From assembly GCA_903824855.1 (NCBI GenBank), contig CAIJYI010000041.1, forward strand, positions 27,159 to 91,158: DNA of 64,000 nucleotides. The letters run 5' to 3'. Origin of the DNA: an uncultured bacterium (GTDB lineage Bacteria > Patescibacteriota > Minisyncoccia > Phycocordibacterales > CAIJYI01). How positions within the stretch are numbered: position 1 is the stretch's first letter; each line of letters begins with the position of its first letter. Positions 3,360 to 27,593 of this stretch are shown piece after piece. The notes below the pieces were generated by a model. That model was not told the origin of the DNA. It was given only the letters and a program-made list of their open reading frames with translations, and made no database searches. The position numbers and the translations under genes are program-made.

Positions 3360-3387
3360 TTGCTTTTTTATAAAAATATGCTATATT
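3360..3387 (+). promoter_or_regulatory. Putative promoter for tRNA-Glu (extended -10 TGcTATATT at 3379-3387; -35-like TTGCTT)
   Basis: Sequence match; lies 73 nt upstream of the tRNA. Confidence 0.3.
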
Positions 3388-3429
3388 CATAAAGTTCATC
3401 AAGTTATAAAGTTCATCAAGTTCATCAAG
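3386..3429 (+). repeat. Tandem 9-nt minisatellite (AAGTTCATC / AAGTTATAA units, about 4.5 copies) in the tRNA-Glu leader
   Basis: Direct reading. The same unit family recurs at 20161-20199 (inside alaS) and, as reverse complement, at 55878-55922. Confidence 0.8.
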
Positions 3430-9771: not shown

Positions 9772-9825
9772 TGATAGATCAACGCCTCTTTTTTCTTGAA
9801 TAATAAAGGTTTTTTTGAATAAGCA

Positions 9826-9836
9826 GGGGGGGGGGG
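9826..9836. repeat. G11 homopolymeric tract in the promoter region of the (GNN)n surface-protein gene
   Basis: Direct reading (gcaGGGGGGGGGGGagaaaaag). Highly atypical in this AT-rich sequence. Sits about 25 nt upstream of a TTGACA box at 9859. Confidence 0.85.
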
Positions 9837-10032
9837 AGAAAAAGTCCTATCAAAAATGCTTGACAGGGCTATTTCATTATGCTAACGTTGCGAAAGGTCG
9901 TTTTTGAGGAGAGTCTTCAAGAATAGACTATTTGTCCTTTGAAATAATAAAGTACGTAGAAAATCTAACTGATTATTTCAGGGAATTCATGCCGTTTTGG
10001 CATATTTCTTAACTTCTAAAAGGAAGAAAAAA

Positions 10033-10776
10033 ATGAATAAGTTATTACTTGCAGTATCTGTATCTTTATTACTTGGCTCCACTGCATTCGCAGACGTAAC
10101 TACTGCTCCTACTCCAACTACGGCAACAAGTACTTTATCCGTCACAGGTTATAGTCATGCGTTTGCTGAAGCACTTGGAAATCTGACTGGTGTGCAAACT
10201 CACGATACTCTTAATTTAACCGGATCACTTTCCGGTAGTGGGAATTTTATTACCGGTCAATCAACTGGTATTGCTGATGTTCTCGGTGCCGGTCCTACTC
10301 ATTCAATTGCGGAAAGTGGCATAATAGGCAGTCTTTCTTTGAGCCTTGACCCTCACTTTATTTCCGGAACTGGCAGTAGTGAGCAATATGGTGTGTTGAG
10401 TTCTTTAGGTACCGGATCAAGTATTGTTAGTGGCAGTTTGTCATTAAGCGGTAATTTAGGATCTAACTTTGGAAGCGCAAGTGCTCTGGATGGCGCAACA
10501 AGTACTCAATTTACATCCGGTTTGCTTTCTGCTCAAGGTTTGAGCTCCGGCGATCTTTGGATTAAAACAGCACTTACCCCAGCGATAATTCCAGACCCAG
10601 GTACAGGTGGTACCGGTGGTGACAACGGTAACAACGGTAACAACGGTAACGGTGGTAACAACGGTAACGGTGGTACTGGCCAAGATTATGGAAATGGTAA
10701 TGGCGGTACAAATAATGGTCATGGTAATGGCGGCAATAACGGTAATGGCCAAGGCACAGGCGGCGGTCAACAATAA
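10033..10776 (+). CDS. Secreted Gly/Ser/Thr/Asn-rich low-complexity protein with C-terminal (G-N-N/G-N-G)n repeats
   Basis: The track start is TTG 9997. The ATG at 10033 follows AGGAAG and begins a signal peptide (MNKLLLAVSVSLLLGSTAFA). The C-terminus carries GDNGNNGNNGNGGNNGNGG and related repeats. Confidence 0.55.
   Translation: MNKLLLAVSVSLLLGSTAFADVTTAPTPTTATSTLSVTGYSHAFAEALGNLTGVQTHDTLNLTGSLSGSGNFITGQSTGIADVLGAGPTHSIAESGIIGSLSLSLDPHFISGTGSSEQYGVLSSLGTGSSIVSGSLSLSGNLGSNFGSASALDGATSTQFTSGLLSAQGLSSGDLWIKTALTPAIIPDPGTGGTGGDNGNNGNNGNGGNNGNGGTGQDYGNGNGGTNNGHGNGGNNGNGQGTGGGQQ
10600..10765 (+). repeat. In-frame tandem 6/9-nt repeats (AACGGTAAC, GGTGGT, AATGGC) encoding (GNN/GNG)n
   Basis: Direct reading of GGTGACAACGGTAACAACGGTAACAACGGTAACGGTGGTAACAACGGTAACGGTGGT... 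Confidence 0.7.
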
Positions 10777-10808: not shown

Positions 10809-10842
10809 GAGAAGGAGTTTTCCCTCCTTCTCTATTTTTTTC
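10809..10842 (+). terminator. Rho-independent terminator (GAGAAGGAG-TTTTCC-CTCCTTCTC + TATTTTTTT)
   Basis: Direct reading; lies downstream of the (GNN)n gene. Confidence 0.7.
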
Positions 10843-10901: not shown

Positions 10902-11906
10902 ATGAATCAGTTACAAAGAATTATCGCAGCAGTTTTTATCTCCGGGTGTGCAATTTCTTTTGCCGCATCCGCAGGAGATACAAACACCAATGTAGATGTC
11001 GGGAATAACGCAACAGCGCAAACTATTGGCGGAGCTCAAAATCAAACATTCCGTCAAGGTGATACTTACGTTAAAGTTTCACCCGCTGTGCCACTCCCAA
11101 ATACTGCGGCTTCACTCGCTGTCAATCCAACCACTTTTTTGAATAACGGTGCAGGCTTGGCGGAAAGGACTGCGCAATATAGTAGATTGTTTGCTCAATT
11201 TACTAAAGGTGTTGTTTCAGTCAACGGGTTAAATAGTAAACGTGGCGAAACAAAAACCACAGATACGGATTTTGCCGTCCTCGTATGGCAACCTTATTCC
11301 GATTACTATAATGGTGCGGTGAATGAAGATTTGTACGTCAAATCATTTTCGCCGATGATAACCGATATGTCTGTAGACTTTGGTGCTATGTCGCCAACAA
11401 CAAACTTTTTTGTTATCGGCCATGTCGCCGTGGTAACACCAAAAGGTTCTGATTTATCTGACGCCGTTTTGCAGGAAACATTAATCGCGGAAGCGGAAAA
11501 GTTTCTTGTAAACGAAGTTGAGATAACCGGTTTTACGGATATTACTCCAATGGTGATTTTTGAAACAACCGCATTCTATCAAGGCAGTGCCGTGACGAGT
11601 GGTGGTTATCAAATCTCTCCTCAAGTGAGCATGTTCCCCGGTGCCGGTGTTGGAACAGGCAGTTTCTTCAGCTTTCAAGATGTGAAAGGTCAATCAACTC
11701 CTGAATATCGCCTTGGTATGAAAATTGTTTTCTTAGCAAAAGCGACAAATGCAGGTGAAGGTCATGCGATAGTTGCAAAAGTGCAACAAATCAGTAAGAC
11801 TATTGCAGAAAAAGCCGCCAGCGAAAAAGCTGCAGCAGCCGAAAGGTCATCTGAAATGGCAGTTAAACATTCTGTTGACACTGCTGTAGATAAAACAGCT
11901 CAATAA
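10902..11906 (+). CDS. Secreted hypothetical protein
   Basis: 334 aa. Signal peptide MNQLQRIIAAVFISGCAISFAASA. No known domain recognised. Confidence 0.55.
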   Translation: MNQLQRIIAAVFISGCAISFAASAGDTNTNVDVGNNATAQTIGGAQNQTFRQGDTYVKVSPAVPLPNTAASLAVNPTTFLNNGAGLAERTAQYSRLFAQFTKGVVSVNGLNSKRGETKTTDTDFAVLVWQPYSDYYNGAVNEDLYVKSFSPMITDMSVDFGAMSPTTNFFVIGHVAVVTPKGSDLSDAVLQETLIAEAEKFLVNEVEITGFTDITPMVIFETTAFYQGSAVTSGGYQISPQVSMFPGAGVGTGSFFSFQDVKGQSTPEYRLGMKIVFLAKATNAGEGHAIVAKVQQISKTIAEKAASEKAAAAERSSEMAVKHSVDTAVDKTAQ

Positions 11907-12053: not shown

Positions 12054-12602
12054 ATGAACGATGAGGATATCGTGAAATTAGTACAGAACGGCGATATTGA
12101 AATCTTCGGTGTTTTGATTGAACGTTACGAGGAGAAGATGCTTCGATATGCGCGAAAATTTTTATTTGGTACTGATTCTGCAACTGATCTGGTGCAGGAT
12201 GTTTTTACGAAAGCCTATATTAATATATCCGGTTTTGATACAGCGAAAAGATTTTCTCCGTGGCTTTATCGTATTGCGCATAATTGTTTCATAAATGAAT
12301 TAAAGAAAAATAAACGAGAACCCGTGCCGATGTTTGATATGGACATTTTTTTCCCGAATTATCCTCAGAATGATACGCCGGAAACAGAGGTGATTCGAAA
12401 TGAGTTAAAAAAGACACTTGGCGATTGTATTAATAATATCGATTACAAATATAAAGAAGTTCTCATCTTGTATTATTATGAAGAATTAAGTTATAAGGAG
12501 ATTTCGGATATCTTGCATATCCCCGTGGCAACCATAGGAATGAGGATTAGCCGCGGAAAGGAAGCAATGAAAAAAATTATACTTAAGGAACAAGAAATAT
12601 GA
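12054..12602 (+). CDS. ECF-family RNA polymerase sigma factor (sigma-70 regions 2 and 4)
   Basis: 182 aa. Region 2 is DLVQDVFTKAY...WLYRIAHNCFINELKK. The region 4 HTH is LSYKEISDILHIPVATIGMRISRGKEAMKK. Confidence 0.8.
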   Translation: MNDEDIVKLVQNGDIEIFGVLIERYEEKMLRYARKFLFGTDSATDLVQDVFTKAYINISGFDTAKRFSPWLYRIAHNCFINELKKNKREPVPMFDMDIFFPNYPQNDTPETEVIRNELKKTLGDCINNIDYKYKEVLILYYYEELSYKEISDILHIPVATIGMRISRGKEAMKKIILKEQEI

Positions 12603-13309
12603 GTAACTCAAAAACAAAATCGATAAAAAATTCAATATTGTATAAAATAAAAAATGGAGACATTAAGAAACTTCCAAAAGTTATTTTTAATGTAAAATCG
12701 GCTTTTTTTATTGTTGCGTTATTCCTCGTTCTGTCTTTTTCAGTTTTTGTGTTAAGTTTTATTGTTTTTTCACTTCAGATCTCCGGACTATGGAAGCTTT
12801 CATTTTTTGGAATTAAAGGATTTCAGATGTTAATTAGTAATTTACCTTGGATCATTATTCTTCTGGTCATAGGGTTTATTGTCATTTTGGAGATTATGGT
12901 AAACAGATATTCCTTCTCTTATCGAAAACCATTTCTGTATACCTCATTAATGGTAATCTGTCTAGTCGTCGTGACAAGTCTCGTTATTAGAAAAACTTCC
13001 TTTGATGAAAATTTTTATTCAAAAATTGAACAGGGAAAAATACCGGCATTTAAGCCGCTATACGAAAAGTATGTTAATCCGAGTCCTGAATACTTTCACC
13101 CCGGGACGTTGATAAAAATGGAACCCGAAGGTTTTATCCTTGAGCTTCATGATAAAAAAACTATTTTTGTGAGGATATCCGAAAAAACAGAAAAGCGAAT
13201 CGGTTTTGAAATTTATCCAGGAACTCGATTACTCGTTGTCGGTAAAATAGTGAACGAAATTATTGACGCAGAAATCATCGATAATGCGCCCTCTAGTGGG
13301 CGTCCGTAA
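12599..13309 (+). CDS. Membrane protein, putative anti-sigma factor
   Basis: 236 aa. Start overlaps the sigma-gene stop (ATGA). It has a cytoplasmic N-terminus followed by 3-4 TM helices. The anti-sigma role is inferred from synteny only. Confidence 0.4.
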   Translation: MSNSKTKSIKNSILYKIKNGDIKKLPKVIFNVKSAFFIVALFLVLSFSVFVLSFIVFSLQISGLWKLSFFGIKGFQMLISNLPWIIILLVIGFIVILEIMVNRYSFSYRKPFLYTSLMVICLVVVTSLVIRKTSFDENFYSKIEQGKIPAFKPLYEKYVNPSPEYFHPGTLIKMEPEGFILELHDKKTIFVRISEKTEKRIGFEIYPGTRLLVVGKIVNEIIDAEIIDNAPSSGRP

Positions 13310-13392: not shown

Positions 13393-15021
13393 ATGAAATT
13401 TTTTCTTATGAATCCGATGCGCATCGTTATTTTATTATTAACATTCGGTATAATCGCGGTGGGCGGGTTTTGGTACTCATCGGATCATAGAGCAAATTTA
13501 TCAAACTCCGATATTTCCGCCGCAACGTCAACTGATAGTGCTTCTTATATAAGACCCTCAACAGAAGCAGATAAGACAAATAATCCGCCTCCAGAGGCTG
13601 CAATTATTGCTTGTTCTGGTAAATCAATTGGCGTAGCATGTCAATTTTCAGATAATGGAAACATTGCTGTTGGTGTCTGCGACGATAACCCTGGTGTCCT
13701 CGCTTGTAGAAAAAATGATGACGCTGGCGTTGGACAAACAGCTACAGGGACAACAAAACCGACGACAGGAACTACGGGTGCATCGATAAATAGTCAACCA
13801 TCAAAAACAACAACGACAACCACTTCTACCACCACAACTAAACCTACTACCCCGCCTTCATCCGGGGGGCAGAGCAGTTACAGTATAACGCAGGCAATTT
13901 CTGATCAAGCTCAATTAAACACGCTGGCTTTTGATGGGCTCGGATTTTTAACCGGAAATACTTGCTCGGATTCATTTTTACCTCCGGGAAAAGTTGCTGA
14001 TTTTTTCGGTTTTCAATATTTGAGAGATACCACGGCGAACGGAAAAGGACATGATACTGATTTCGTAACCAACTCGGCTAATAATGTTCTGTATACTTTA
14101 ACGGCTGCACAAAAAGCGAAGATGACTGCGCTTGCGAAATCACAGAGCTCCCAAGTAAATGAATTCGCGTATAAAAGATTTCCTTTGATGGTAGCTTTTC
14201 GCCGCGAATTTACAGGAGATATTCCATCCGGAACAACTGGTTTGAGTAAAACAGCAGTAATGGACTATTCCGCGGATCTCTATGAAATTGATGCTCAGAT
14301 AAGTTTGGAGAGGGCACAATTATTTGGAGAGATTATCAGGTCACTTTCAACTGAACAGAAAGCATATTTTGATGCTATGGTGAAAGGAGGTTTTGCCTCG
14401 TGGAAGATCTTACCGGACCAGGTTGATAAGGTAAATCTTACTGTTGACCAGTCAGTGCTTATGATGACGTATGCGAGCGAAATGTTTGGTTGGTATGCGG
14501 GAAATATTGAAGCTGATACATATTTCTGCCCTGAGAGGCAGGCGGATTACTTTGGCGGATTTTATATAAAAGACGCTCCGGCTATTGGGAATGCCGGTTA
14601 TACTATCGATGAATCTATCACCGGCGACCAAGGTCAAGCTTTCTTAAATGCTTTAAGTAGTGCACAAAAACCAATCATAACAACTTTAGTTGACACACAA
14701 AGAACAGCAATCAACAGTATTGTCGAAAAAAGACGTGCTATTTCAACCGAATTGCGCAATGCCTTGTCGACAGGAACAATTGATACCGAAAAGGTAATTG
14801 CTTTGTCGAGACAATACGGGGAATTGGACGGAGAAATTTCATATTATTACGCTTCTGCCTTCTCAAAGGTCGGTAAAACTCTCACTACTGATCAAAAAGC
14901 GAATTTGGTGAAGTTAAAAAATCTTGACGGATATTCTTGCCCAAGTACTTCTGCATATCTCTATTCGGCAAAGATTACAATGCCAACAGTTGAAAGTACA
15001 GATTTTCTTTTTGCTAAATAA
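13393..15021 (+). CDS. Large membrane-anchored extracytoplasmic protein with a Cys-rich module and Thr-rich linker (hypothetical)
   Basis: 542 aa. Starts with an N-terminal TM, then a 6-Cys module (CSGKSIGVACQF...CDDNPGVLAC), a TTTTTTSTTTTKPTTPP linker and a ~380-aa C-terminal domain of unknown family. Confidence 0.55.
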   Translation: MKFFLMNPMRIVILLLTFGIIAVGGFWYSSDHRANLSNSDISAATSTDSASYIRPSTEADKTNNPPPEAAIIACSGKSIGVACQFSDNGNIAVGVCDDNPGVLACRKNDDAGVGQTATGTTKPTTGTTGASINSQPSKTTTTTTSTTTTKPTTPPSSGGQSSYSITQAISDQAQLNTLAFDGLGFLTGNTCSDSFLPPGKVADFFGFQYLRDTTANGKGHDTDFVTNSANNVLYTLTAAQKAKMTALAKSQSSQVNEFAYKRFPLMVAFRREFTGDIPSGTTGLSKTAVMDYSADLYEIDAQISLERAQLFGEIIRSLSTEQKAYFDAMVKGGFASWKILPDQVDKVNLTVDQSVLMMTYASEMFGWYAGNIEADTYFCPERQADYFGGFYIKDAPAIGNAGYTIDESITGDQGQAFLNALSSAQKPIITTLVDTQRTAINSIVEKRRAISTELRNALSTGTIDTEKVIALSRQYGELDGEISYYYASAFSKVGKTLTTDQKANLVKLKNLDGYSCPSTSAYLYSAKITMPTVESTDFLFAK

Positions 15022-15039
15022 CTATTCATTATTAATTTT

Positions 15040-15756
15040 TTGAAACATATGTATAAAGATACCGATAAAGTCGTTTTGATTACGGACAATGATGATCTTG
15101 TCGTGGAAAGCAGTGATGACAAGAATCAAACAAAAAATAAAGAAAAAATAATTATTGCCGTATTGTCTGTCGTATTTTTGATTCTTCTTTGTGGAGTCAT
15201 TTGGGATCTTTATGGAAGAAAAACCTTGACCATATATTTATGCGGAACAGAAATAGCGACAAGCACTGCTGGTTTATTGGGTACGAGTACCCCGAAAGAT
15301 CTTTCCATTGCATCACAAAATACAGCGAGTCCCGAAACTCCCCCAGCAACTCCTTCTGGTGTCAAAAAGAGCGTAGGCAATACCCCGCTAAAACCTTCAG
15401 GAAATACTACCGCGTCTATAACGAAACCGAGTAGTAGTGTCGCATACTCTTCATATGGCACCTGTATAGAAAATGCGAAAGATCTTGGTTCCAGTAAAGA
15501 TTGCTGTGATTGTTTGAGCGCTGATGTTTCCGTGAGAAAAGCATGTAGAGACTTCGCGGCGACGTATGATTTTACAAAAAATACAACAATAAAAACATTC
15601 ACTATTCCTTCGTCTCTCGGTCGAACCGGAAATTATACTGCTTACACATCAAGTGCCACACAACAAGAATGTAAGCAAAAATGTGATTCTTCTACAACTC
15701 TTCAGTGTGGCGATTTTCAATTCTGTCGGACTGCGTGCGATAGTATGACACAATAA
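15040..15756 (+). CDS. Membrane-anchored Cys-rich secreted protein (hypothetical)
   Basis: 238 aa. TM helix precedes a C-terminal domain with about 12 Cys (CCDC...CRTAC). Confidence 0.45.
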   Translation: MKHMYKDTDKVVLITDNDDLVVESSDDKNQTKNKEKIIIAVLSVVFLILLCGVIWDLYGRKTLTIYLCGTEIATSTAGLLGTSTPKDLSIASQNTASPETPPATPSGVKKSVGNTPLKPSGNTTASITKPSSSVAYSSYGTCIENAKDLGSSKDCCDCLSADVSVRKACRDFAATYDFTKNTTIKTFTIPSSLGRTGNYTAYTSSATQQECKQKCDSSTTLQCGDFQFCRTACDSMTQ

Positions 15757-15762
15757 TCAAAT

Positions 15763-16968
15763 ATGAATAAGAAGGTTTTTATTTCGCTCATTTGTGCGTT
15801 GGTTGTCGGGATTATTTCGATTTCGTATTTTTGGGTCGCAAACAGAGACAAAAAAATAATTTCTTCCGAAACATTATCGCAATCCGAACAGGTAACCAAA
15901 TCAACCTCTACCGAACAAATAGTCACGATTACCGAGCCGTCGACCGTCACCTCGCAAAATTCCGTTCAGGGAAGTTTCTCGTTTGGAATTCAGGGCGATT
16001 CTCATCCTGAAAGAGCGGGAAAAATGTTTAATGCGGATTTGTATGCAATAAACCTGCAAAATGCAAATAATGCTAATCTCGCGTTTTATTTTCTTCTCGG
16101 CGATGACTTCAGTATTGAGAAATTGATTGAGGACAAGACCTTTACTCAAGAAACTGTTGATAAAGTATATTTGCAGCAAAAAAATTATTTGAAAAATATT
16201 TCCGTGCCGATTTATTTAGTGAACGGCAACCATGAGCAAGAAGCCAAATATTTACTGGACGGTACGAATAATAATCCGGCAATTTTAGCAAAAAACGCGC
16301 GCGCAAAATTTTTTGATTCTCCCGGCGCCGAAAACGGTTACTACTCTTTCACGCATGGAGATGCTCTCTTTGTTGTTATTGATTTTTATTGGCATTCGGA
16401 CTTGGCGGCGGATAATGTTGCCGGCGCAAAGGGCGGAAGCGCGAAACGAAGCGATTTATGGAACAATACGCTCGGCGACGTCCAATATCAATGGTTTAAA
16501 AAAACACTGGAAGAAAGCAAGGCGAAATATAAATTCGTTTTCACACATCATGTTCTGGGCACAGGGCGCGGAGGAGTGGAGGAAGCAAAGTTGTATGAAT
16601 GGGGCGGATACAACTCAAAAGGCGTTTGGGAATTTGATACCAAAAGGCCGGGATGGGAATTGCCGATTCATCAGCTGATGGCGAAAAACGGTGTGACGAT
16701 ATTTTTCCAGGGACATGATCACTTATTCGCCAAACAAGAACTTGATGGAGTAATCTATCAGGAGGTTCCAAACCCTGCGGATAATACTTATACGGCATTC
16801 AACAAAGATGCCTATAAAACGGGAACCGTATTACCGAATTCCGGATATCTCAATGTGACGGTTTCGCCGACGAATGTAAAAGTTGATTATATACGAGCAT
16901 TCCTTCCAAAAGACGAAACGGCAACGAGTAAAAACGGTTCCGTAGCTTTTTCCTATACCGTTCAATAA
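15763..16968 (+). CDS. Membrane-anchored calcineurin-like metallophosphoesterase (purple-acid-phosphatase-like), paralog 1
   Basis: 401 aa. Metallophosphoesterase motifs GDSHPE...GDD...GNHE...HH...GHDH are present, after an N-terminal TM. Confidence 0.7.
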   Translation: MNKKVFISLICALVVGIISISYFWVANRDKKIISSETLSQSEQVTKSTSTEQIVTITEPSTVTSQNSVQGSFSFGIQGDSHPERAGKMFNADLYAINLQNANNANLAFYFLLGDDFSIEKLIEDKTFTQETVDKVYLQQKNYLKNISVPIYLVNGNHEQEAKYLLDGTNNNPAILAKNARAKFFDSPGAENGYYSFTHGDALFVVIDFYWHSDLAADNVAGAKGGSAKRSDLWNNTLGDVQYQWFKKTLEESKAKYKFVFTHHVLGTGRGGVEEAKLYEWGGYNSKGVWEFDTKRPGWELPIHQLMAKNGVTIFFQGHDHLFAKQELDGVIYQEVPNPADNTYTAFNKDAYKTGTVLPNSGYLNVTVSPTNVKVDYIRAFLPKDETATSKNGSVAFSYTVQ

Positions 16969-16977
16969 ATTTGAATC

Positions 16978-18129
16978 ATGAAAATCTTCAAAACATCATA
17001 CATTATTATCGCTTTGCTTATCGGAATCTGCGCTGTTTCCGTTTTTTGGGCGATGAATAAAAATACTGCGGAAGAGATTTTTCCCGAACAAGCGGCGGAA
17101 ATTTCACGGTCGACAACGACGCCAGCAGACATCAACGCGACAAGCCAATCTCCCGCCACACAGGGTGAAGCAGTGGACGCAGTGGAAGAGACCTCAAAGG
17201 AAGTCGCCGGCGGCGACGATAATTACGTTTTTGATATAGAAGCCGATCCTCATATGGATGAGCAGTCTGATTCCAAAATTTATACTCAGACCTTAAAAAA
17301 TATTGTGAGCGACAAACCGGCATTTTTGATAGACCTCGGTGATATTTTTATGGTGGATAAATTGTCTGATAAAAGCGAGGCAAATATAAAAGCGCGCTAC
17401 GACCTCATGAAAGGATATTATGACCTGCTCGGGTCCATTCCTCTCTATTTTGCGATGGGAAACCATGATGGAGAAGTTGGCTGGGATAAGCTCTATACGA
17501 AGAATTATCGTCTCCAATATTTCCCGAAAGAAACCTACGATAAAAACTATTATTCTTTTGAAAAGGAAAATGCGCTTTTTGTCGTTCTTGACCCGTACAT
17601 GTATACGACGACGAAGCCAAATGAGAACGGGTGGGACTGGACACTTGGAAAAGCGCAATATGATTGGTTGAAAAAAACACTTGAGTCGAGTAATGCAAAA
17701 TATAAATTTGTGTTCATTCACCAGCTCGTTGGCGGAGATAACCAAGGACGCGGAGGTATTGAATTTGCCAAACTCTATGAATGGGGAGGAAACAACATCG
17801 ACGGCAGTTATGGATTTACATTGAATCGTTCAGGATGGGGAACTCCGATTCATCAATTGCTGGTCGATAACAAAGTTGATGTAGTTTTTAAAGGTCACGA
17901 TCATTTTTTCGCTAAGCAAATATTGAATGGAGTGATATATCAAACAGTTCCACAGCCAAGTCATCCTGGGGCTAATATTAATACTGCGGAGGAGTATGGA
18001 TATTTAAATGGAGTAATTCTCGGAGGTTCCGGTTATTTGAGAGTGACAGTTATGGACACAAAAGCTCTGGTTGAATTTGTTAAGACAAATAGCACAAAAG
18101 ATGTTGCGGATTCATATTCTATACAATAA
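16978..18129 (+). CDS. Membrane-anchored calcineurin-like metallophosphoesterase, paralog 2
   Basis: 383 aa. Clearly paralogous to 15763-16968 (KYKFVFxHxxxGxxxGRGGxExAKLYEWGG...PIHQL...GHDHxFAKQxLxGVIYQxVPxP). Arranged as a tandem duplicate. Confidence 0.7.
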   Translation: MKIFKTSYIIIALLIGICAVSVFWAMNKNTAEEIFPEQAAEISRSTTTPADINATSQSPATQGEAVDAVEETSKEVAGGDDNYVFDIEADPHMDEQSDSKIYTQTLKNIVSDKPAFLIDLGDIFMVDKLSDKSEANIKARYDLMKGYYDLLGSIPLYFAMGNHDGEVGWDKLYTKNYRLQYFPKETYDKNYYSFEKENALFVVLDPYMYTTTKPNENGWDWTLGKAQYDWLKKTLESSNAKYKFVFIHQLVGGDNQGRGGIEFAKLYEWGGNNIDGSYGFTLNRSGWGTPIHQLLVDNKVDVVFKGHDHFFAKQILNGVIYQTVPQPSHPGANINTAEEYGYLNGVILGGSGYLRVTVMDTKALVEFVKTNSTKDVADSYSIQ

Positions 18130-18222
18130 AAAAATGTAACTTTTTCTGGTGCTGATTCCATAGTATAGATGGATACAAGATGTATTTTGTTTAAGATAAT
18201 TATTAATAATATTAAAATTACG

Positions 18223-18660
18223 ATGAAAAAAACTATCGTTTTAGGTCTTAGTGTTGCCTTATTGGCCATGTCTGGAAGTATTACTTATGCACAGATAAAA
18301 AGCGTTGGAGCAAAAGCTTTTGCAAATCAAAATGCAAGTATGAATCTTCCTTGTGTTCAGACAGCTGTTGGGGTCAGAGAAACAGCTATTCAAGCTTCAT
18401 TTACAAAATTCACGTCATCAACATTAACAGCAATGCAGACAAGAGCTACTGCACTTAATACTGCTTGGGGTATGACCGTTGGAGCAGAAAGAAGAGCTGC
18501 TCGGAAAGCTGCCTGGGATGCATATAAGTCAACCAACGATGCAGCACGAGCAACTTTTAAAACGGAAAAACAAGTAGCTTGGGATACATTCAACAAAGCT
18601 TCCGCTGTGTGTGGGGTCGAAGTTGTAGAAACACCTTCTCAAGACGGGTTGACAATATAA
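18223..18660 (+). CDS. Secreted hypothetical protein
   Basis: The track start is 18169. The ATG at 18223 begins a signal peptide (MKKTIVLGLSVALLAMSGSITYA). The rest is Ala/Thr-rich and probably helical. Confidence 0.5.
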   Translation: MKKTIVLGLSVALLAMSGSITYAQIKSVGAKAFANQNASMNLPCVQTAVGVRETAIQASFTKFTSSTLTAMQTRATALNTAWGMTVGAERRAARKAAWDAYKSTNDAARATFKTEKQVAWDTFNKASAVCGVEVVETPSQDGLTI

Positions 18661-18682
18661 AACTACACTAAGATATAAAGAC

Positions 18683-18720
18683 AAAAAATACCCTGACTAA
18701 AGCGACGGGTATTTTTTTAT
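18683..18720 (+). terminator. Terminator-like hairpin (AAAAATACCC...GGGTATTTTTTT)
   Basis: Direct reading. Confidence 0.5.
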
Positions 18721-18763
18721 ATAAAAACAATAAAAATTTTATTTTATAAAAGTACTTATCTTG

Positions 18764-18793
18764 CTGGCATAAAAATAGTATTCTTTGTATGAT
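18764..18793 (+). promoter_or_regulatory. Conserved promoter-like element copy B, identical 30-mer to 12018-12047, ending 6 nt before the tsaC ATG at 18800
   Basis: Direct comparison. Confidence 0.45.
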
Positions 18794-18799
18794 GAGAAA

Positions 18800-19342
18800 A
18801 TGAGAAATATGGATATTATCGAAATTCTGAAAAACGGTGGTATTGGGATTTTTCCGACCGATACATTGTATGGATTGGTTGGCTCGGCACTTAATCCGTC
18901 CGTAGTGGAAAGAATTTACAAGGTAAGAAAACGGTCAGACGGGAAACCGTTTATTGTTTTGATACACGAGATTAAAGATCTTGAATCTTTTGGCATTTTA
19001 ATTCAGAGTGAAGAAGTAAAAACCGCACAAACGTATTGGCCCGGCCCCGTGAGTATAATTTTACCGTGCGATAATCCTCAATTTGAATATTTGCATCGAG
19101 GAACGAAATCAATCGCTTTTCGCTTGCCGGCAGACATTGAACTTCATAATTTTCTCAAAGAAACCGGTCCGCTTGTCGCACCTTCCGCCAATACCGAAGG
19201 GAATCCGCCGGCACTTACCATAGAAGAAGCAAAAAACTATTTCGAAGACGAAGTTGATTTTTACGTTGATGAAGGAAAAAAGGAAGCTCTGCCTTCAAAA
19301 ATTTTAAAAATTGTCGGAAGTTCTGTTACTACTCTGCGATAA
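18800..19342 (+). CDS. tsaC: L-threonylcarbamoyladenylate synthase (YrdC/TsaC family)
   Basis: The track start is 18785. By analogy with the sigma-gene copy of the upstream element, the start is more likely 18800 (MRNMDIIEIL...). The YrdC-domain signature is GIFPTDTLYGLVG plus a KxR motif. Confidence 0.7.
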   Translation: MRNMDIIEILKNGGIGIFPTDTLYGLVGSALNPSVVERIYKVRKRSDGKPFIVLIHEIKDLESFGILIQSEEVKTAQTYWPGPVSIILPCDNPQFEYLHRGTKSIAFRLPADIELHNFLKETGPLVAPSANTEGNPPALTIEEAKNYFEDEVDFYVDEGKKEALPSKILKIVGSSVTTLR

Positions 19343-19351
19343 AGATATTAT

Positions 19352-19378
19352 TGAGAAAATTCGAAATTTCGGTATAAT
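19352..19378 (+). promoter_or_regulatory. sigma70-like promoter (TTGAGA-N15-TATAAT) upstream of alaS
   Basis: Sequence match. Confidence 0.4.
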
Positions 19379-19386
19379 GAACCAAT

Positions 19387-21171
19387 ATGCAATCAAATGA
19401 AATAAGGGCGAGATTTTTAACTTTTTTTGAGAAACGCGGGCATGCAATTATCCCGAGCGCTTCACTCATTCCTGAAAATGACCCTTCAGTGCTTTTCAAC
19501 ACGGCCGGAATGCAACCATTAGTGCCGTATCTTCTTGGAGAGTCACATCCGAGTGGTGCGACACGTCTCGCGAATTCACAGAAATGCGTCAGAACGGTTG
19601 ATATCGATGAGATAGGTGATAATACCCATGCGACATTTTTTGAAATGCTCGGCAACTGGTCGCTCGGAGATTATTTTAAGGAAGAGGCCATCGAATGGAG
19701 TTTTAAATTACTTACCGACAAAGAAGAAGGATTTGGACTCGATCCGAAACGACTGTATGTAACAGTTTTTGAAGGTGATGAAAATGCTCCTCGTGATGAC
19801 GAGGCTTTTGAAATCTGGAAAAAATATATTCCCGAACATCGCATTTATTTTATGGGTGCGAAGAATAACTGGTGGAGCCCCGGAGATAATGGTCCGTGCG
19901 GTCCCGATTCGGAAATGTTTTACGATGTGACGGTTGAAGGACTCGGTGACATGACGAAGGAAGAATACTTGAAAGCTGATGATGAACAAAAAATTGTTGA
20001 AATCTGGAACGATGTTTTCATGGAATATGAAAAGAAAGATGGAAAAGTAATAGGGAAGTTGTCAAAGAAAAACGTTGATACCGGATCAGGGCTAGAGCGC
20101 GTGACGATGGTCGTTCAAGGAAAAAATAATATTTATGATACCGATTTACTGCAACCGATAGTTCATCAAGTTCATAAAGTTTCTCAAGTTCGTCAAGTTA
20201 CGGACGGAAATGAACGTGTCGAGCGAATTATCGCCGACCACTTGCGCACTTCGATTTTTATGATTGCGGATGGCGTTGTTCCGTCCAATACCGATAGAGG
20301 TTACATCTTGCGACGTCTTTTACGTCGTGCGGTAAGACTTTCACATACCTTGGAACTCAGTTGCGGGCTGGAAGAACTTGTCGGTTCTGTTATTCATATT
20401 TATACTGATTCCTATCCGAATTTAGTAAAAGATGCCGTCAGAATTCAGAATGAAATAAAGAAAGAAGAAGAAAAATTCCGTCTCACACTCGTCCACGGAA
20501 TGAAAGAATTCGAAAGAATTTCAGAAGGGAAGAGTGAATTATCCGGAGCGGAAACCTTCAGTCTTTTTTCCTCGTATGGTTTTCCGATTGAGATAACAAA
20601 AGAACTTGCTTCTGAAAGAGGAATCGTCGTCGATGAAAAAGGCTTTGAAGAAGAATTCAAAAAACATAAAGAAATTTCTGCCGTCGGTTCCGAACAAAAA
20701 TTTAAAGGCGGACTGGCTGATACTTCGGAAATTTCGACGCGTTATCATACCGCCACACATCTTCTCCAAAAAGCTCTCCGTACGGTTTTAGGCGAACACG
20801 TTTTTCAGAAGGGAAGTAATATTACTGCCGAGAGAATGCGTTTTGACTTCTCTCATGGAGAAAAAATGACCGATGAACAGAAGAAAATGACGGAAGATTT
20901 GGTGAATGAAAAAATTAAGGAAGCCTTGCCGGTAATGTACGAGGATCTTCCGATTGATGAAGCCAGAAAACGCAATCCTATCGGCCTATTTGGCGATAAA
21001 TATGGCGATGTCGTTCGTGTTTATACAATAGGCGAAGGCGATAAAAAATGGAGCATTGAGCTTTGTGGAGGCCCACACGTGAAGAATACGAGTGAACTCG
21101 GTCATTTCAAAATCCTTAAAGAAGAAGCCGTGTCAGCAGGAGTCCGAAGAATAAAAGCTGTGCTTGAATAA
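19387..21171 (+). CDS. alaS: Alanyl-tRNA synthetase, short form (catalytic + tRNA-recognition + editing core; no C-Ala domain)
   Basis: 594 aa. N-terminal class II aaRS motifs are present, along with the editing-site motifs HTATHLL and CGGPHV near the C-terminus. The protein ends soon after CGGPHV. Confidence 0.9.
   Translation: MQSNEIRARFLTFFEKRGHAIIPSASLIPENDPSVLFNTAGMQPLVPYLLGESHPSGATRLANSQKCVRTVDIDEIGDNTHATFFEMLGNWSLGDYFKEEAIEWSFKLLTDKEEGFGLDPKRLYVTVFEGDENAPRDDEAFEIWKKYIPEHRIYFMGAKNNWWSPGDNGPCGPDSEMFYDVTVEGLGDMTKEEYLKADDEQKIVEIWNDVFMEYEKKDGKVIGKLSKKNVDTGSGLERVTMVVQGKNNIYDTDLLQPIVHQVHKVSQVRQVTDGNERVERIIADHLRTSIFMIADGVVPSNTDRGYILRRLLRRAVRLSHTLELSCGLEELVGSVIHIYTDSYPNLVKDAVRIQNEIKKEEEKFRLTLVHGMKEFERISEGKSELSGAETFSLFSSYGFPIEITKELASERGIVVDEKGFEEEFKKHKEISAVGSEQKFKGGLADTSEISTRYHTATHLLQKALRTVLGEHVFQKGSNITAERMRFDFSHGEKMTDEQKKMTEDLVNEKIKEALPVMYEDLPIDEARKRNPIGLFGDKYGDVVRVYTIGEGDKKWSIELCGGPHVKNTSELGHFKILKEEAVSAGVRRIKAVLE
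20161..20199 (+). repeat. In-frame tandem 9-nt repeat (GTTCATCAA / GTTCATAAA / GTTTCTCAA / GTTCGTCAA) inside alaS encoding VHQVHKVSQVRQV
   Basis: Direct reading. Same unit family as the arrays at 3386-3429 and 55878-55922. Confidence 0.7.
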
Positions 21172-21185
21172 TTTTTAAAAAAATA

Positions 21186-21222
21186 AACCGCTTCGAATAT
21201 TTTCGAAGCGGTTTTGGTTTAT
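21186..21222 (+). terminator. Rho-independent terminator (AACCGCTTCGAA-TATT-TTCGAAGCGGTT + TTGGTTT)
   Basis: Direct reading; lies downstream of alaS. Confidence 0.8.
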
Positions 21223-21329
21223 TATTGAGAGTAAAGGAAACATTCTTTTTTTATGATTGCCGAACCTGTTTTTGAACGTTATGCACACCCGTTTTTTTCC
21301 ATCTTATGTTATAATATAGGCAATGGGGA

Positions 21330-22514
21330 GTGTTCAAACTTCCTTTTGAAATGGGAATATTTTCTTCAAACAAACCACACATCGCGACAATAATTGATAT
21401 CGGAAGTTCGAGTATCGGGGCTTCGGCTGTTTTACTGTATCCGGATAAAAAACCCTCCGTTCTTTATACTATTCGAAAGGATATGGCGTTTCAGGAAAAG
21501 TTTAATTTTGATCGATTCGTTCTTTCAATGTTAGAAACGCTTGAGAATGTTGTTCAAGAATTATCATCATTTCCGCTTCCTTCACATTCAGATCAAACGA
21601 CGCTCTGTGTGTTTTCTTCTCCATGGTATGCTTCTCAAACACGTTCTGTTAAAAAAACTTTTGAAACAACGACAAAAATAACGGAAAAAATTCTGGAAGA
21701 AATACAGAATACTGAAGTTGAAGCATTTAAACAATCTGAACTTAAAAGTATGGGTGAAGATGCTGTTATTCTTGAAGCTGAAACTATTCAGACAAAAATA
21801 AACGGCTATGAGACCGCTCATCCATTTGGAAAACAGGCGAATGATATGCAGACGGTTATGTATATCAGTATTTCTCCCAAATCTATTATAAAACCGGTCA
21901 CAGATAAGTTACGAAAACACATTCACGGTAATAATCTGCATTTTTCATCATTTTCTTTTTGTTCGTTCGTCGCGGTGCGAGATATATTTCACGGAAAGAA
22001 TTTCATGCTCATCGATATTTCAGGTGAGGTGAGTGATATTTCTATTGTTAAAGACCATGTGTTGCAGGAGACGTTTTCATTTCCTTTCGGCAAGAATTTC
22101 CTTTTACGAAAAATTGCTTCAGAAACCGGTCATACCTTTCAGGAAGCGATTTCACAATTCAGAATGGTCAGTAATTTAGAATCAAATGAAAATAATTCAA
22201 AGAAAATTTTGATTGCGATGGAAAAAGCAGGCAAGGATTGGCTTCTTGAATGCAAAAATGCACTCACGCCGATTCTTGAAAACCAAGAAGTTCTCCCCCA
22301 TGATGTTTTTATTACAGCCGACGAAGATGTTTCAATGTGGTTTATTTCTAATGTTCAAGAATTCGAAAATTCATCTTTTACTTTTACCGATAAACAATTT
22401 TCCATCAAGCATTTGAATCCTACATTCCTATCTTCGTTTTGCGAATCAGAAACCGGAGTTGAGAGAGACCCTTTTATTATGATTGAGAGTCTTTTTGTAA
22501 AACGTTTTATTTAA
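21330..22514 (+). CDS. Divergent actin-fold (ASKHA) ATPase, FtsA/PilM-like
   Basis: 394 aa. Phosphate-1-like IDIGSSSIGASAV near the N-terminus. Phosphate-2-like LIDISGEVSDISIV at about residue 215, compared with FtsA DIGGGTTD. Extended -10 TGtTATAAT at 21308-21316. Confidence 0.4.
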   Translation: MFKLPFEMGIFSSNKPHIATIIDIGSSSIGASAVLLYPDKKPSVLYTIRKDMAFQEKFNFDRFVLSMLETLENVVQELSSFPLPSHSDQTTLCVFSSPWYASQTRSVKKTFETTTKITEKILEEIQNTEVEAFKQSELKSMGEDAVILEAETIQTKINGYETAHPFGKQANDMQTVMYISISPKSIIKPVTDKLRKHIHGNNLHFSSFSFCSFVAVRDIFHGKNFMLIDISGEVSDISIVKDHVLQETFSFPFGKNFLLRKIASETGHTFQEAISQFRMVSNLESNENNSKKILIAMEKAGKDWLLECKNALTPILENQEVLPHDVFITADEDVSMWFISNVQEFENSSFTFTDKQFSIKHLNPTFLSSFCESETGVERDPFIMIESLFVKRFI

Positions 22515-22576
22515 TATTTCTTTTATCAAATATCGCGAGTCAAATTTATTAACCCCTTTTTATAAAAAACAAACAT

Positions 22577-24031
22577 ATGGTAAAAAAGATAATGCAGGAT
22601 GTCGTTTCGATAAAAAAGGAACCCCATGGTAATTCTCGAACGGTCAATAGCGGGGAAAAAATAACGAAACACTCAGTCTCCCCTGTGGAATCATTTCCTG
22701 AAAAAAAGGAATTCCGAAAAGCAACGAAACAAGTTGAAGAAATTCTTCCCGAAATGGAAAGAGATGAACAAAAAATTAAGGATGAAGTACTCGAAAGTTC
22801 CCCTATTTTTGCTAAACTCAAACAGCGACATGATGAAAGGGAGAGTTTTTCAGAGGAGTATGCCGCGGGTCACAATAAGCTCTGGAAAACATATTTTGTT
22901 AAGGGTATTTTTGCGGCAGTGATTCTCATAGTTTTCGGCATTGTCGTTTGGAGTACCGCATTTTATTCCGCATTTATTTCAATACATCTTAAACACTCTA
23001 AGGTAGCTTTGAATAATCAAGAATTCCATTCTGCTGCTGATACACCGGATCTCGTTCCTTATCAAATAATGTCATTATCTGAACAAGCCAGTGTAAAAAT
23101 TACCCCAACCGGTGAAAAAAGAGTAACACAAAAAGCTTCCGGCCCGATCGTTGTTTACAATAATTTCAAGACTCAGCCTCAAATATTAGTAAAGAATACC
23201 CGATTTGAGAGCGCTGACGGCAAAATTTATCGAATCGATCGCCAGATTGTTATTCCGGGAATTAAAAAAGTATCAGGCAAAGATGTCCCCGGTTCCGTTG
23301 AGGTTACGGTGTATGCTGATGAAGCAGGATCAGATTATAATATAGGGCTCACTGATTTTACCATTCCAGGCTTTAAGGGTTCGCCACAATATCAAAAGTT
23401 TTACGGACGTTCAAAGGCGGCGATGAAAGGTGGAGCTTCCGGAATGATTAAAACAATTTCCGATGCCGACAGAGAAGCGGCAAAGACCAGTTTAACGAAA
23501 TCTCTGACCGATAAACTCACAGCGAAGGCAAAGACTCAAAAACCAAAAGGAACTGTACTTTATCCAAAAGCGATGTTCTTCACCTTTATTGATTCAGTTG
23601 ATGATAACGCCGCATCAACAGAAAAGGACGTTTCCTTCACCTTGAAGGGGGAATTAGGAGTAATCTTATTTAATGAAGACGAACTGAGTCGAAGTATCGT
23701 AAAAACGAACGGGGAAGTGACTGCAGATGAAAAAATAGCTATTGATAAAATAGAGAGTCTTGATTTTGAATGGAAGATTCCAATGAGCAGTGTTCCTGAC
23801 AAAACCGCTACCTTGGACTTTACGCTTTCCGGTCCAGCCAACGCTGTCTGGGTGGTTGATATAAATTCCTTTAAGAATAAACTTGCAGGAACGAGCAATT
23901 CAGGGTATCCTAAAATAGTCTCAGAATTCCCCGGAATTGAGAAAGTTACGAAGAATTCTATCAGTCCATTCTGGATGAATACATACCCGAAGGACACAAC
24001 CAAGATATATATAGAGACCATTATTGATTAA
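22577..24031 (+). CDS. Membrane protein (hypothetical); possible partner of the FtsA/PilM-like ATPase
   Basis: 484 aa. Acidic/basic N-terminal cytoplasmic segment, one TM (GIFAAVILIVFGIVVW), then a ~360-aa extracytoplasmic domain of unknown family. Confidence 0.45.
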   Translation: MVKKIMQDVVSIKKEPHGNSRTVNSGEKITKHSVSPVESFPEKKEFRKATKQVEEILPEMERDEQKIKDEVLESSPIFAKLKQRHDERESFSEEYAAGHNKLWKTYFVKGIFAAVILIVFGIVVWSTAFYSAFISIHLKHSKVALNNQEFHSAADTPDLVPYQIMSLSEQASVKITPTGEKRVTQKASGPIVVYNNFKTQPQILVKNTRFESADGKIYRIDRQIVIPGIKKVSGKDVPGSVEVTVYADEAGSDYNIGLTDFTIPGFKGSPQYQKFYGRSKAAMKGGASGMIKTISDADREAAKTSLTKSLTDKLTAKAKTQKPKGTVLYPKAMFFTFIDSVDDNAASTEKDVSFTLKGELGVILFNEDELSRSIVKTNGEVTADEKIAIDKIESLDFEWKIPMSSVPDKTATLDFTLSGPANAVWVVDINSFKNKLAGTSNSGYPKIVSEFPGIEKVTKNSISPFWMNTYPKDTTKIYIETIID

Positions 24032-24091
24032 TCACATATTAGTGCTTGACTATTTTAGCTAAAATATGCTAGCATAGTGAAACTTACGCAA

Positions 24092-24310
24092 ATGAATTTA
24101 AAAGAGAAAGAAGAGGGCGTATATGGTACCATCACAGAGGCTTTGCCGAATACCTTGTTCCGTGTGTTATTAGACGGAGTTAAGGAAGAAAAGTTGGCCT
24201 ATTTGTCGGGTAAAATGCGAATTCACAGAATTAAAGTTCTGGTCGGAGATCGTGTTTTTGTCACTCTCGATCCTTATGGAGGAAAGGGGCGTATTACAAA
24301 ACGGTTATAG
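24092..24310 (+). CDS. infA: Translation initiation factor IF-1
   Basis: The track start is 24077; Met at 24092 gives a 72-aa product. S1-like motif ...[57 protein letters not shown]. Confidence 0.85.
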
Positions 24311-24442
24311 TTTCGTTATTTCTTTGGAAAAGGAGTTGTTTTCCGAAGTTCACGTTTAACTCATCATCCGTCATAAAAGCGGAGGAAGAAGGGAAAGACG
24401 TACCGAGTTACTTTTATAGTTTAAAATTTATCATAAAATATT

Positions 24443-24556
24443 ATGCGAGTAAGAGCTGCAGTTAAAAAGATTTGTCCGAAATGCAAGACTGTTAGACGAA
24501 CAGGTCGTGTGTTTGTAATTTGCGATAATGCTCGTCATAAACAGCGACAAGGCTAA
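24443..24556 (+). CDS. rpmJ: 50S ribosomal protein L36
   Basis: 37 aa, absent from the track because it is under 60 aa. [37 protein letters not shown] has the canonical L36 Cys pattern. Confidence 0.85.
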
Positions 24557-24574
24557 TTAAATTTATATAATATT

Positions 24575-24955
24575 ATGCGTATCCTTGGAATCACCATACC
24601 TGATAATAAACGTCTTGAGATAGGATTAACATCTATCTACGGAATCGGCAGAACAACTGCTAAAAAGATACTAACAGAAGCTAGTGTCGATTTTGGTTTG
24701 CGACCAAATGCTTTAACTCCTGACCAGGAGGCTTTTATAAGAAAGGAAATCGAAGGAAGAAAGGTTGAAGGAGATTTGAAACGTCTCGTTGCCGGAAATG
24801 TAAAGCGTTTGAAAGATATTAAAAGTTACAGAGGAACCAGACACGCGAGAAGACTTCCGTCACGCGGACAAAGAACTAAAACCAACTCCCGCACCGTTAG
24901 AGGCAATGTCCGTAAGACTATGGGATCGGGACGCAGAAAAGTTGAAAAGACATAA
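24575..24955 (+). CDS. rpsM: 30S ribosomal protein S13
   Basis: 126 aa. MRILGITIPDNKRLEIGLTSIYGIGRTTAKKIL... Confidence 0.9.
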   Translation: MRILGITIPDNKRLEIGLTSIYGIGRTTAKKILTEASVDFGLRPNALTPDQEAFIRKEIEGRKVEGDLKRLVAGNVKRLKDIKSYRGTRHARRLPSRGQRTKTNSRTVRGNVRKTMGSGRRKVEKT

Positions 24956-24994
24956 AAATTGTTAAAATCTAGAAATCAATAAAAACCTAAAAAA

Positions 24995-25423
24995 ATGGGA
25001 AAGAAACGAATAGTTAAAAAAGGAGGTGAAGGAGCATCGGGAAAACCGAGATCTTTGAGCCGCGTACCGAAGAAGAAAGTTTCTTCAGGTCGCTTGTATG
25101 TTGAATCAACCTACAACAATACTAAAGTTGTCCTTACAGACTCTTTAGGAAATGCTCTTGTCTGGTCTTCATCCGGAACACTGGGATTCAGAGGTGCAAA
25201 GAAAGGTACCCCGTTCGCAGCAGCTAAAGTTGGTGAATTGGTTGGAGAAAAAGCTCAGACCATGGGAATGAAAGAAGCCGCAGTGATTATCAAGGGAGTT
25301 GGCGCAGGCCGTGAGGCTACTGTCCGAGGATTCGTTTCAAAAGGAATCGATATCACTTCCATCAAAGATACCACCCCGGTTCCACATAATGGCCCGAAGC
25401 CAAAGAAACCAAGAAGAGTTTAG
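24995..25423 (+). CDS. rpsK: 30S ribosomal protein S11
   Basis: 142 aa. ...GTPFAAAKVGELVGEKAQTMGMKEAAVIIKGVGAGREATVRGF... Confidence 0.9.
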   Translation: MGKKRIVKKGGEGASGKPRSLSRVPKKKVSSGRLYVESTYNNTKVVLTDSLGNALVWSSSGTLGFRGAKKGTPFAAAKVGELVGEKAQTMGMKEAAVIIKGVGAGREATVRGFVSKGIDITSIKDTTPVPHNGPKPKKPRRV

Positions 25424-25537
25424 TTAATTAAATTATGCTTCCACGGTACTGGAAAGGAAAGTATGAAAACATAGGTTTTCATCCCTCGGCCCACAGCCGA
25501 GCCTACGCCTAAGCGGGCCGCGCGAGCGATCAATCAA

Positions 25538-26161: not shown

Positions 26162-26216
26162 TAACTCTTTACAAATCTGTGTTAATAATGTATATTGTTT
26201 AATAACATAAAAAAAC

Positions 26217-27589: not shown

Positions 27590-27593
27590 AAAC

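Follow-up and report, generated by a model that had tools for sequence, protein, structure and literature searches.

A length-variable poly-G tract upstream of the gene for a secreted orphan protein in a lake-dwelling Parcubacteria population: a candidate simple-sequence contingency locus

Introduction

Contingency loci that vary by slipped-strand mispairing are textbook elements of animal pathogens of the genera Neisseria, Haemophilus, Campylobacter and Helicobacter. Some of the repeats act at the promoter: Neisseria meningitidis nadA carries TAAA repeats upstream of its -35 box, and in Bordetella pertussis fim2/fim3 a poly-C tract lies between an activator site and the -10 box. The bacteria of the candidate phyla radiation (CPR), for their part, represent uncultivated lineages with tiny genomes and are believed to rely on contact with other cells, which surface molecules would mediate or limit. 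In the literature that we searched, no paper links phase variation or homopolymeric tracts to the Patescibacteria or to the CPR. In this work, we analyzed a run of eleven G residues (G11) that precedes the gene for a secreted protein of 247 amino acids (aa) within a stretch of DNA of 64,000 nucleotides (nt), hereafter the window. A first-pass annotation had combined this tract with in-frame tandem repeats of the gene into a candidate phase- and antigenic-variable surface protein of the kind known from host-associated bacteria; the host-associated setting had to be abandoned, as the DNA comes from an uncultivated Parcubacteria (CPR) population of oxygen-stratified lakes. We found that this run behaves as a true simple-sequence repeat (SSR) of hypermutable length, which gains and loses G residues by slipped-strand mispairing, and that the locus is a well-supported candidate for an element of a known kind, an SSR contingency locus, in an unusual lineage and habitat. 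The features of the upstream region are the following:

9791-9803 and 9810-9822, plus strand: two copies of the 13-nt direct repeat TTTTYTTGAATAA, found by repeat search, in AT-rich DNA just 5' of the tract
9826-9836, plus strand: the G11 tract, in the context GCA-G11-AGAAAAAG, as read from the window sequence
9839-9843 (about -57/-53) and 9852-9856 (about -44/-40), plus strand: two A5 tracts between the G tract and the -35 box, read from the sequence
9860-9865, plus strand: -35 hexamer TTGACA, within an exact match to TTGACA-N14-TGNTANNNT, an architecture that recurs in the related loci L016, L020 and L022
9880-9888, plus strand: extended -10 box TGcTAACGT; 9860-9888 as a whole matches TTGACA-N14-TGnTAnnnT exactly

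By analogy, the T-tract of Helicobacter pylori sabA appears to be the best-fitting precedent. There, a tract upstream of the -35 box tunes the promoter by altering how UP-like elements are axially aligned with its core (PMC4081817). Both loci have an intergenic homopolymer upstream of the -35 box that varies in length between close clones, with AT-rich UP-like boxes beyond it, and a secreted or surface product whose gene also contains an intragenic repeat; action through axial alignment with graded output has been proposed for sabA and would be the corresponding proposal here. They differ in that the sabA tract is poly-T and adjoins the -35 box, whereas ours is poly-G, lies 23 bp from the -35 box and has A-tracts on both sides. 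Lengths of 5-18 or more were tested in sabA and lengths of 8-12 were observed here, in a free-water CPR bacterium.

The remaining systems share fewer traits with this locus. As in nadA and fim2/fim3, a repeat located in or upstream of the promoter region could shift upstream-bound factors relative to RNA polymerase, and the products are surface proteins, by prediction in our case (for homopolymer microevolution in Bordetella, see PMC1891110); however, the regulators are identified in those systems (NadR/IHF and BvgA), whereas here there is just a candidate site, the 13-nt repeats at 9791-9822. Neisseria porA/opc/fetA and Haemophilus hif also have a slippage-prone poly-G/C (or TA) tract in the promoter of a surface-protein gene, but the tract constitutes the -35/-10 spacer, an arrangement that only a weak hypothetical promoter (P1, discussed below) would fit in our case. 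Campylobacter jejuni (PMC8355987) resembles this locus in its poly-G tracts of 8-13 nt within a small AT-rich genome and in their length heterogeneity, which there is seen between and within populations; its tracts, in contrast, are mostly intragenic, act as translational on/off switches and number about 30 per genome, against one intergenic tract in 64 kb here. Finally, Mycoplasma Vlp proteins and the streptococcal alpha C protein have in-frame C-terminal repeats of varying copy number, as does our gene (units of 9/18 nt; 2 vs 3 copies; 247 vs 253 aa), although its array is short (about 67 nt) and the commonest large changes are irreversible 11-nt frameshifts that remove the tail.

Results

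The poly-G tract varies in length among near-identical contigs

In a count of all homopolymers, the G11 tract was the only G/C run of more than 6 nt in the 64,000 nt of the window, whose remaining long runs were four G6, seventeen G5 and, as the maximum for C, one C6. With a G+C content of 39.6%, the expected number of G runs of at least 11 nt is 0.0017 (at 21% G), which bears out the initial remark that such a run is very unusual in this DNA. The tract is separated from TTGACA by 23 nt and from the ATG at 10033 by 197 nt, close to the 25 and 200 nt first estimated. It was pure G in every contig compared, that is, uninterrupted and of the length (about 8 or more) at which G/C runs are prone to slippage.

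We compared the window with about 20 contigs with available DNA, which were reached by looking for identical copies of four proteins: the 247-aa product, those encoded on either side of it and a truncated allele. Their identity with the window is 99.6-99.99%, along as much as 12.7 kb. They derive from BUCK21-1 (SPIRE), from ERZ1426xxx and ERZ27313xxx assemblies and from ERR4194xxx (Logan), nearly all of one project, StratFreshDB, which comprises 267 deep NovaSeq metagenomes (2x150), sampled along depth profiles in 41 lakes and ponds with stratified oxygen and put together with Megahit (PMC8121793). In these contigs the tract has 8, 9, 10, 11 or 12 G residues, with identical flanks in all of them:

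G8: L001, L005, L009, L011
G9: L028
G10: L012/L029, L013, L014
G11: window, L002/L026, L004, L027
G12: L003/L010, L007, L030

In contigs without DNA, the intergenic distance of 259, 261 or 262 nt fits G8, G10 and G11, respectively. The annotation had regarded a uniform length across related strains as the result that would speak against its hypothesis; lengths differ among the contigs and the hypothesis survived.

The variation is confined to this locus. All indels of the comparison contigs other than those of the tract fall within the head of the gene's repeat region (three events), and between 3259 and 16776 there are zero indels outside 9826-10675. As a control, four further contigs spanning 13409-30422 (51 kb aligned) showed 2-4 single-nucleotide polymorphisms (SNPs) each and zero indels. 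Furthermore, 36 other homopolymers (A/T of at least 7, and G6) between 3259 and 30500 were constant throughout. Hence, in near-identical genomes a variable tract stands between constant flanks, in about 27 kb that are otherwise free of indels save for the repeat head. Since the 36 other homopolymers are constant and the control contigs are free of indels, we consider the length variation to be specific to the locus and not a general homopolymer error.

Different lengths also occur on one background: (i) the background with the deletion 10603-10613 carries both G11 and G12, (ii) the haplotype 9881A/10004T/10991C carries both G8 and G9, and (iii) the reference-like background carries G8, G11 and G12. 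The same length was also seen on more than one background, which may be an indirect hint of reversible switching, as may the contig ends described below. Three pipelines (SPIRE, ERZ273... and Logan; contigs L012, L013 and L014) recovered G10, apparently from one sample, and in each case an identical deletion and identical SNPs were linked to it. The variation on single backgrounds and the agreement of three assemblers on G10 argue against technical noise. Tract length is associated with linked SNPs, G8-G10 going with 9881A. The SNP load amounts to about a dozen sites in about 13.5 kb, and the five tract states require at least four length changes; judging from these counts, its mutation rate per site exceeds that of the background by orders of magnitude.

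Contigs from many samples tend to end close to the tract. Within about 100 nt of it lie the starts of L006 (9839), L007 (9777) and L008 (9912) and the end of L011 (9924). Most contigs with the upstream gene measure 5-10 kb and most with the downstream gene 2-5 kb, in a genome that can assemble to more than 100 kb. Such systematic breaks between the flanking genes are as expected of an unresolved variant in a k=141 graph, and hint at heterogeneity within samples.

The tract lies upstream of a conserved extended -10 promoter

Of the four gene relatives with readable DNA, three show the same promoter architecture, namely TTGACA-N14-TGcTATTAT in L020, TTGACA-N14-TGaTACAAT in L022 and TTGCAA-N14-TGtTAGTCT in L016, followed by leaders of 145-265 nt, each with a conserved CCTTTGAAAAGGA ribosome-binding site (RBS) region. 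The window contains two exact matches to TTGACA-N14-TGNTANNNT, one of them at 9860-9888. Allowing up to one mismatch, there are 11 sites vs 1.5 expected (7-fold), a number that none of 100 shuffles reached, and these sites lie mostly just upstream of genes. Because the architecture is kept in relatives and matches the enriched pattern exactly, we assign TTGACA at 9860-9865 as the -35 box of a conserved extended -10 sigma-70 promoter, and its first reading as a promoter box was thus correct; an rpoD gene is present in the window. A reading of TTGACA...CGT as a promoter for an extracytoplasmic function (ECF) sigma factor was rejected, as the -10 boxes of the relatives are TATTAT and TACAAT. The sites of the enriched pattern at 32532, 49121, 54208 (minus strand), 54251 and 58124 (minus strand) are among the 11, which provide a usable promoter model for this CPR lineage.

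Transcription probably starts near 9895, which would place the tract at about -60 to -70, a placement comparable to that in the rheostat cases sabA, nadA and fim. With respect to the conserved promoter, the tract thus lies 5' of the -35 box and not between -35 and -10, the position of the repeats in porA, opc and hif. AT-rich boxes flank it on both sides, at 9786-9822 upstream and at 9839-9856 between the tract and the -35 box. From the E. coli consensus and the sabA precedent (PMC4081817), the A5 tracts at 9839-9856 may be regarded as UP-element-like. The 13-nt direct repeats at 9791-9822 could be a UP-like element or a candidate regulator-binding site, the phase of which to the promoter would be set by tract length. 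We rejected the core of this repeat, TTGAATAA, as a regulon motif, its 16 sites in the window vs 8.7 expected being unconvincing, as well as the tract as part of a terminator, since the G run folds onto an upstream C/U-rich stretch and no U-run follows.

The promoter itself carries a polymorphism: in several alleles (G8-G10), SNP 9881 G>A abolishes the TG of the extended -10 box and creates TATACT. As a speculation, this change may be a second way to tune the same promoter. In addition, an imperfect palindrome, CCTATCAA-N6-TTGACAGG, which a terminator scan had returned as a minus-strand stem, overlaps the -35 box at 9846-9867; it could be an operator for a dimeric repressor.

The transcribed region has the following features:

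9896-10032, plus strand: inferred 5' untranslated region of about 137 nt with predicted hairpins, including the RBS AAAAGGAAG at 10020-10028
10033-10776, plus strand: gene for the secreted orphan protein of 247 aa, with its ATG at 10033, preceded by AAAAGGAAG
10600-10622, plus strand: head of the repeat region, with two distinct 11-nt frameshift deletions in other assemblies
10609-10675, plus strand: in-frame tandem array (Tandem Repeats Finder: period 9 x5.7, GGTAACAAC; period 18 x3.7, GGTAACGGTGGTAACAAC; 83% matches)
10809-10842, plus strand: intrinsic terminator with a perfect 9-bp stem, GAGAAGGAG/CTCCTTCTC, followed by a T run

The strong terminator 3' of the gene makes it likely to be monocistronic. 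The leader can be aligned with that of the closest relative (L016) over about 120 nt, and the whole intergenic region has an RNA fold z-score of -2.96. A search of the intergenic region and leader against Rfam gave zero families at the gathering threshold or at E values up to 10; a match to 'freshwater-2' was rejected, with 19 bits vs a gathering score of 49.9.

An orphan protein, predicted to be secreted, with a variable tail

The 247-aa protein begins with a signal peptide (aa 1-20) and a Thr/Pro linker; its core, at aa about 30-180, is all-beta, and the Gly/Asn-rich tail at aa 190-247 is disordered. The signal peptide is of the Sec type, with cleavage at MNKLLLAVSVSLLLGSTAFA|DV, and is conserved with its xFA cleavage motif in all five members of the family, so that secretion of the product, which the first reading had already assumed along with its low complexity, is predicted; on the same basis, surface exposure of the protein is predicted as well. 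The mature core is rich in Ser, Gly, Thr and Leu (99 of 169 residues) and has few charges, and the tail (the last 58 aa) contains 28 G and 17 N. This tail is unique to the species; in the relatives the protein stops directly behind the beta core.

The family has very few members: an exhaustive HMMER search of 1.84 billion representatives with the N-terminal domain returned only four other 50%-identity clusters (P0004-P0007, 26-44% identity). A protein homologue search with either the full-length sequence or the N-terminal domain alone returned only P0003, a truncated allele, the full-length query being swamped by low-complexity words, and the exact 247-aa sequence was not found in a cluster look-up. 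The profiles of Pfam, NCBIfam and PHROGs gave zero matches for this protein, and likewise for the 334-aa product of the next gene. A scan of JGI metagenomes yielded no relative, and the sole match in a scan of genome contigs, whose GTDB representatives do not include the species, from a metagenome-assembled genome (MAG) of Alkalimonas (L019, 44% over 52 residues), was rejected as spurious. An AlphaFold2 (AF2) model built from five sequences reached a predicted local distance difference test (pLDDT) score of about 90, and displays three very long beta-hairpins with strands of up to 36 residues. Its structural matches are weak and limited to pore-forming hairpins and membrane barrels.

The 3' part of the gene had been described as tandem repeats from 10600 to 10765. 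A true array does exist, at 10609-10675 (about 67 nt), but the rest of those 165 nt is no strict tandem array: beyond it, up to 10773, the coding sequence is of low complexity and Gly/Asn-rich, with scattered 12-nt repeats. The array does vary in size, as the 18-nt unit AACAACGGTAACGGTGGT is present in 2 copies in the window and in L013, and in 3 copies in L012; moreover, a product of 253 aa, with a tail 6 aa longer, is recorded in ERZ1426538. Together with the range from G8 to G12 in near-identical contigs, this bears out the proposal that both the tract and the in-frame repeats are prone to slippage and differ between populations. In the repeat head, the deletion 10603-10613 (L027, L030) results in a 192-aa product ending in PDPGRW, and the deletion 10610-10620 (L012, L013, L014) in a 195-aa product, P0003, ending in GTGGQR, the tail being lost in both cases. 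These two different 11-nt deletions at the junction of core and tail look like convergent tail loss in natural populations. The pairs L003/L030 and L012/L013 suggest that intact and truncated alleles may occur side by side in one sample. The independent tail deletions and the change in copy number point to fluctuating or relaxed selection on the gene.

Discussion

This locus combines the traits by which SSR contingency loci are recognized in sequence: the tract is long and pure, it alone is polymorphic in length, it lies close to a promoter, and the gene behind it has a product predicted to be secreted. It is unlikely to work as a plain on/off switch through the spacer, in the manner of porA/opc, because the tract lies about 23 bp upstream of the -35 box, outside the -35/-10 spacer. 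We propose instead that tract length alters promoter output, acting as a graded 'rheostat' of the secreted-protein gene through the spacing and phase of the upstream DNA, a reading whose chances we judge to be about even. The tract changes its number of G residues by slippage, far faster than the surrounding DNA changes, and its length would set the spacing and rotational phase of the AT-rich upstream DNA, or of a protein bound there, relative to RNA polymerase at the core promoter. The 4-bp range corresponds to about 0.4 helical turn, which would suffice to swing the upstream DNA nearly to the opposite face of the helix. Sub-populations would then make differing amounts of the secreted protein, in a graded manner rather than as a clean on/off. 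The repeat region of the gene adds a second layer of variation, made up of 18-nt copy number and recurrent tail loss; the tail truncations are irreversible, and are therefore ordinary mutations and no phase variation.

Several observations weigh against this proposal. The tract is located outside the -35/-10 spacer, where single-base effects are best understood, and the A-tracts, a possible UP element, lie downstream of it, so that their spacing to the -35 box does not change with tract length. The tract is absent from all relatives with readable DNA (L016, L020 and L022), and in ten related loci every G/C run is shorter than 7 nt; this makes it a young feature that is not conserved, as a neutral expansion would explain too. 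Contingency loci usually, though not necessarily, number several per genome, and the 64-kb window has a single such tract; none of the lengths from G8 to G12 can be assigned to 'on' or 'off'. In addition, the partial tracking of SNP haplotype by tract length (G8-G10 with 9881A) implies that switching is not fast enough to randomise lineages. All four allele combinations of SNPs 9881 and 10004 occur among the contigs. Recombination, recurrent mutation or chimerism of the consensus sequences would account for this, and the argument from haplotypes is weaker to the extent that the consensus contigs may be recombinants or chimeras. Besides, heterogeneity within samples is no more than hinted at, through the contig breaks near the tract.

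The main rival explanation is a neutral hypermutable repeat, that is, a chance expansion of G in non-essential intergenic DNA which slips as all long G runs do and whose length has no effect on the neighbouring gene. The absence of the tract from every related locus examined, its position beyond both the core promoter and the UP-like A-tracts on the 5' side, and the occurrence of one such tract per 64 kb are what such a repeat would lead one to expect. Against it, G11 is about 500-fold unexpected in a window whose other G/C runs do not exceed 6, and the tract is uninterrupted in all of the approximately 20 contigs. Moreover, it is located in the promoter-upstream zone of the sole gene in 27 kb that shows a change in repeat number plus two independent truncations, and a chance co-location of these is hard to credit. 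On balance we regard neutrality as possible, if rather unlikely. Should the tract be merely a neutral slippery run, it would be ordinary, yet useful as a marker for strain tracking. That the lengths themselves are an artefact, produced by NovaSeq errors at G homopolymers or by assembler choices, seems to us scarcely credible: the data are indeed 2x150 NovaSeq reads assembled with Megahit, G homopolymers are error-prone and contigs often break near the tract, but the difference in length reaches 4 nt, G10 with its linked deletion and SNPs was obtained from three pipelines alike, lengths go with linked SNPs while 36 other homopolymers are invariant, and unique sequence is found on both sides of the tract in every contig.

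Two further explanations would assign the tract a direct switching role. In one, it forms most of the spacer of a second promoter, P1, with TTGAAT (9815-9820) as the -35 box and AAAAGT (9840-9845) as the -10 box, short tracts being ON and long ones OFF as in Neisseria porA/opc. The arithmetic fits the alleles (the spacer is 16 nt at G8, 18 at G10, 19 at G11 and 20 at G12) and TTGAAT agrees with the -35 consensus in 5 of 6 bases; however, the -10 candidate matches at only 3 of 6 and has no TG extension, the site was not reported in a promoter scan and relatives have no equivalent of it, whereas the downstream promoter is conserved and matches the enriched pattern exactly. We therefore take P1 to be very unlikely. 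In the other, an upstream open reading frame (ORF) of 30 codons starting with TTG (9815-9907, MNKQGGGEKK...) spans the tract and works as a translational switch, being in frame at G8 and G11 only. G8 and G11 are the two commonest alleles, and AAAGG stands 5 nt before the TTG. Nevertheless, this ORF overlaps the -35 and -10 boxes of the conserved promoter, so that it would be translated from read-through transcripts only; it also has no homologue and a weak start codon, and G9, G10 and G12 are frequent too. We hold such a switch to be extremely unlikely.

Returning to the graded tuning of the conserved promoter, its biological sense might lie in the lifestyle of the organism. CPR bacteria are thought to live attached to other microbes, and the poly-G tract could serve as a 'dimmer' that varies a lineage-specific secreted beta-sheet protein, the tail of which is gained, lengthened or lost, as a target of recognition by phage, host or partner cell. 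We offer this idea as a doubtful one, and consider it unlikely as it stands. The very long beta-hairpins of the AF2 model might serve the assembly of a pore or fibre at the site of cell contact. If the idea as a whole is true, the CPR would have its first described contingency locus, one that would point to a molecule important in cell-cell interactions. In about 27 kb of otherwise near-clonal DNA, this locus is the sole hot-spot of indels, varying in tract length, in repeat number and through recurrent tail loss, and it thereby marks a single orphan secreted protein as being under fluctuating selection.

Neighbouring genes and additional observations

The secreted-protein gene is followed by a partner gene:

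10902-11906, plus strand: partner gene, 334 aa, with an N-terminal signal or lipoprotein-like sequence

The two form a cassette found in Parcubacteria, in which a small secreted beta-rich protein (174-247 aa) is followed by a gene for 310-341 aa in every member examined (window, L016, L020 and L022). A single-sequence AF2 model of the 334-aa partner was uninformative (pLDDT 34). At position 11170, within the partner gene, the window has C and every other contig examined has A, the protein version of the window being found on a single contig. In the window, the cassette is followed on its 3' side by a gene for an ECF sigma factor (12054-12602) and by one for a membrane protein (12599-13309).

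As for the organism, the closest named relatives of the window's alanyl-tRNA synthetase are 85-86% identical and belong to 'Candidatus Parcubacteria bacterium' and to Paceibacterota MAGs. The window also encodes RpoD, a penicillin-binding protein, MurF, ribosomal proteins and many orphan secreted proteins. Finally, a 9-nt unit, AAGTTCATC, occurs in about 3-5 imperfect tandem copies at three unrelated sites, 3386-3429, 20160-20199 and 55877-55923. The first of these has a promoter-like box, TGCTATATT, on one side and tRNA-Glu on the other, the second is part of the coding sequence for alanyl-tRNA synthetase, where it reads IVHQVHKVSQVRQV, and the third is located where gene 55900-58077, on the minus strand, has its 3' end. 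They may represent a shared protein-binding array.

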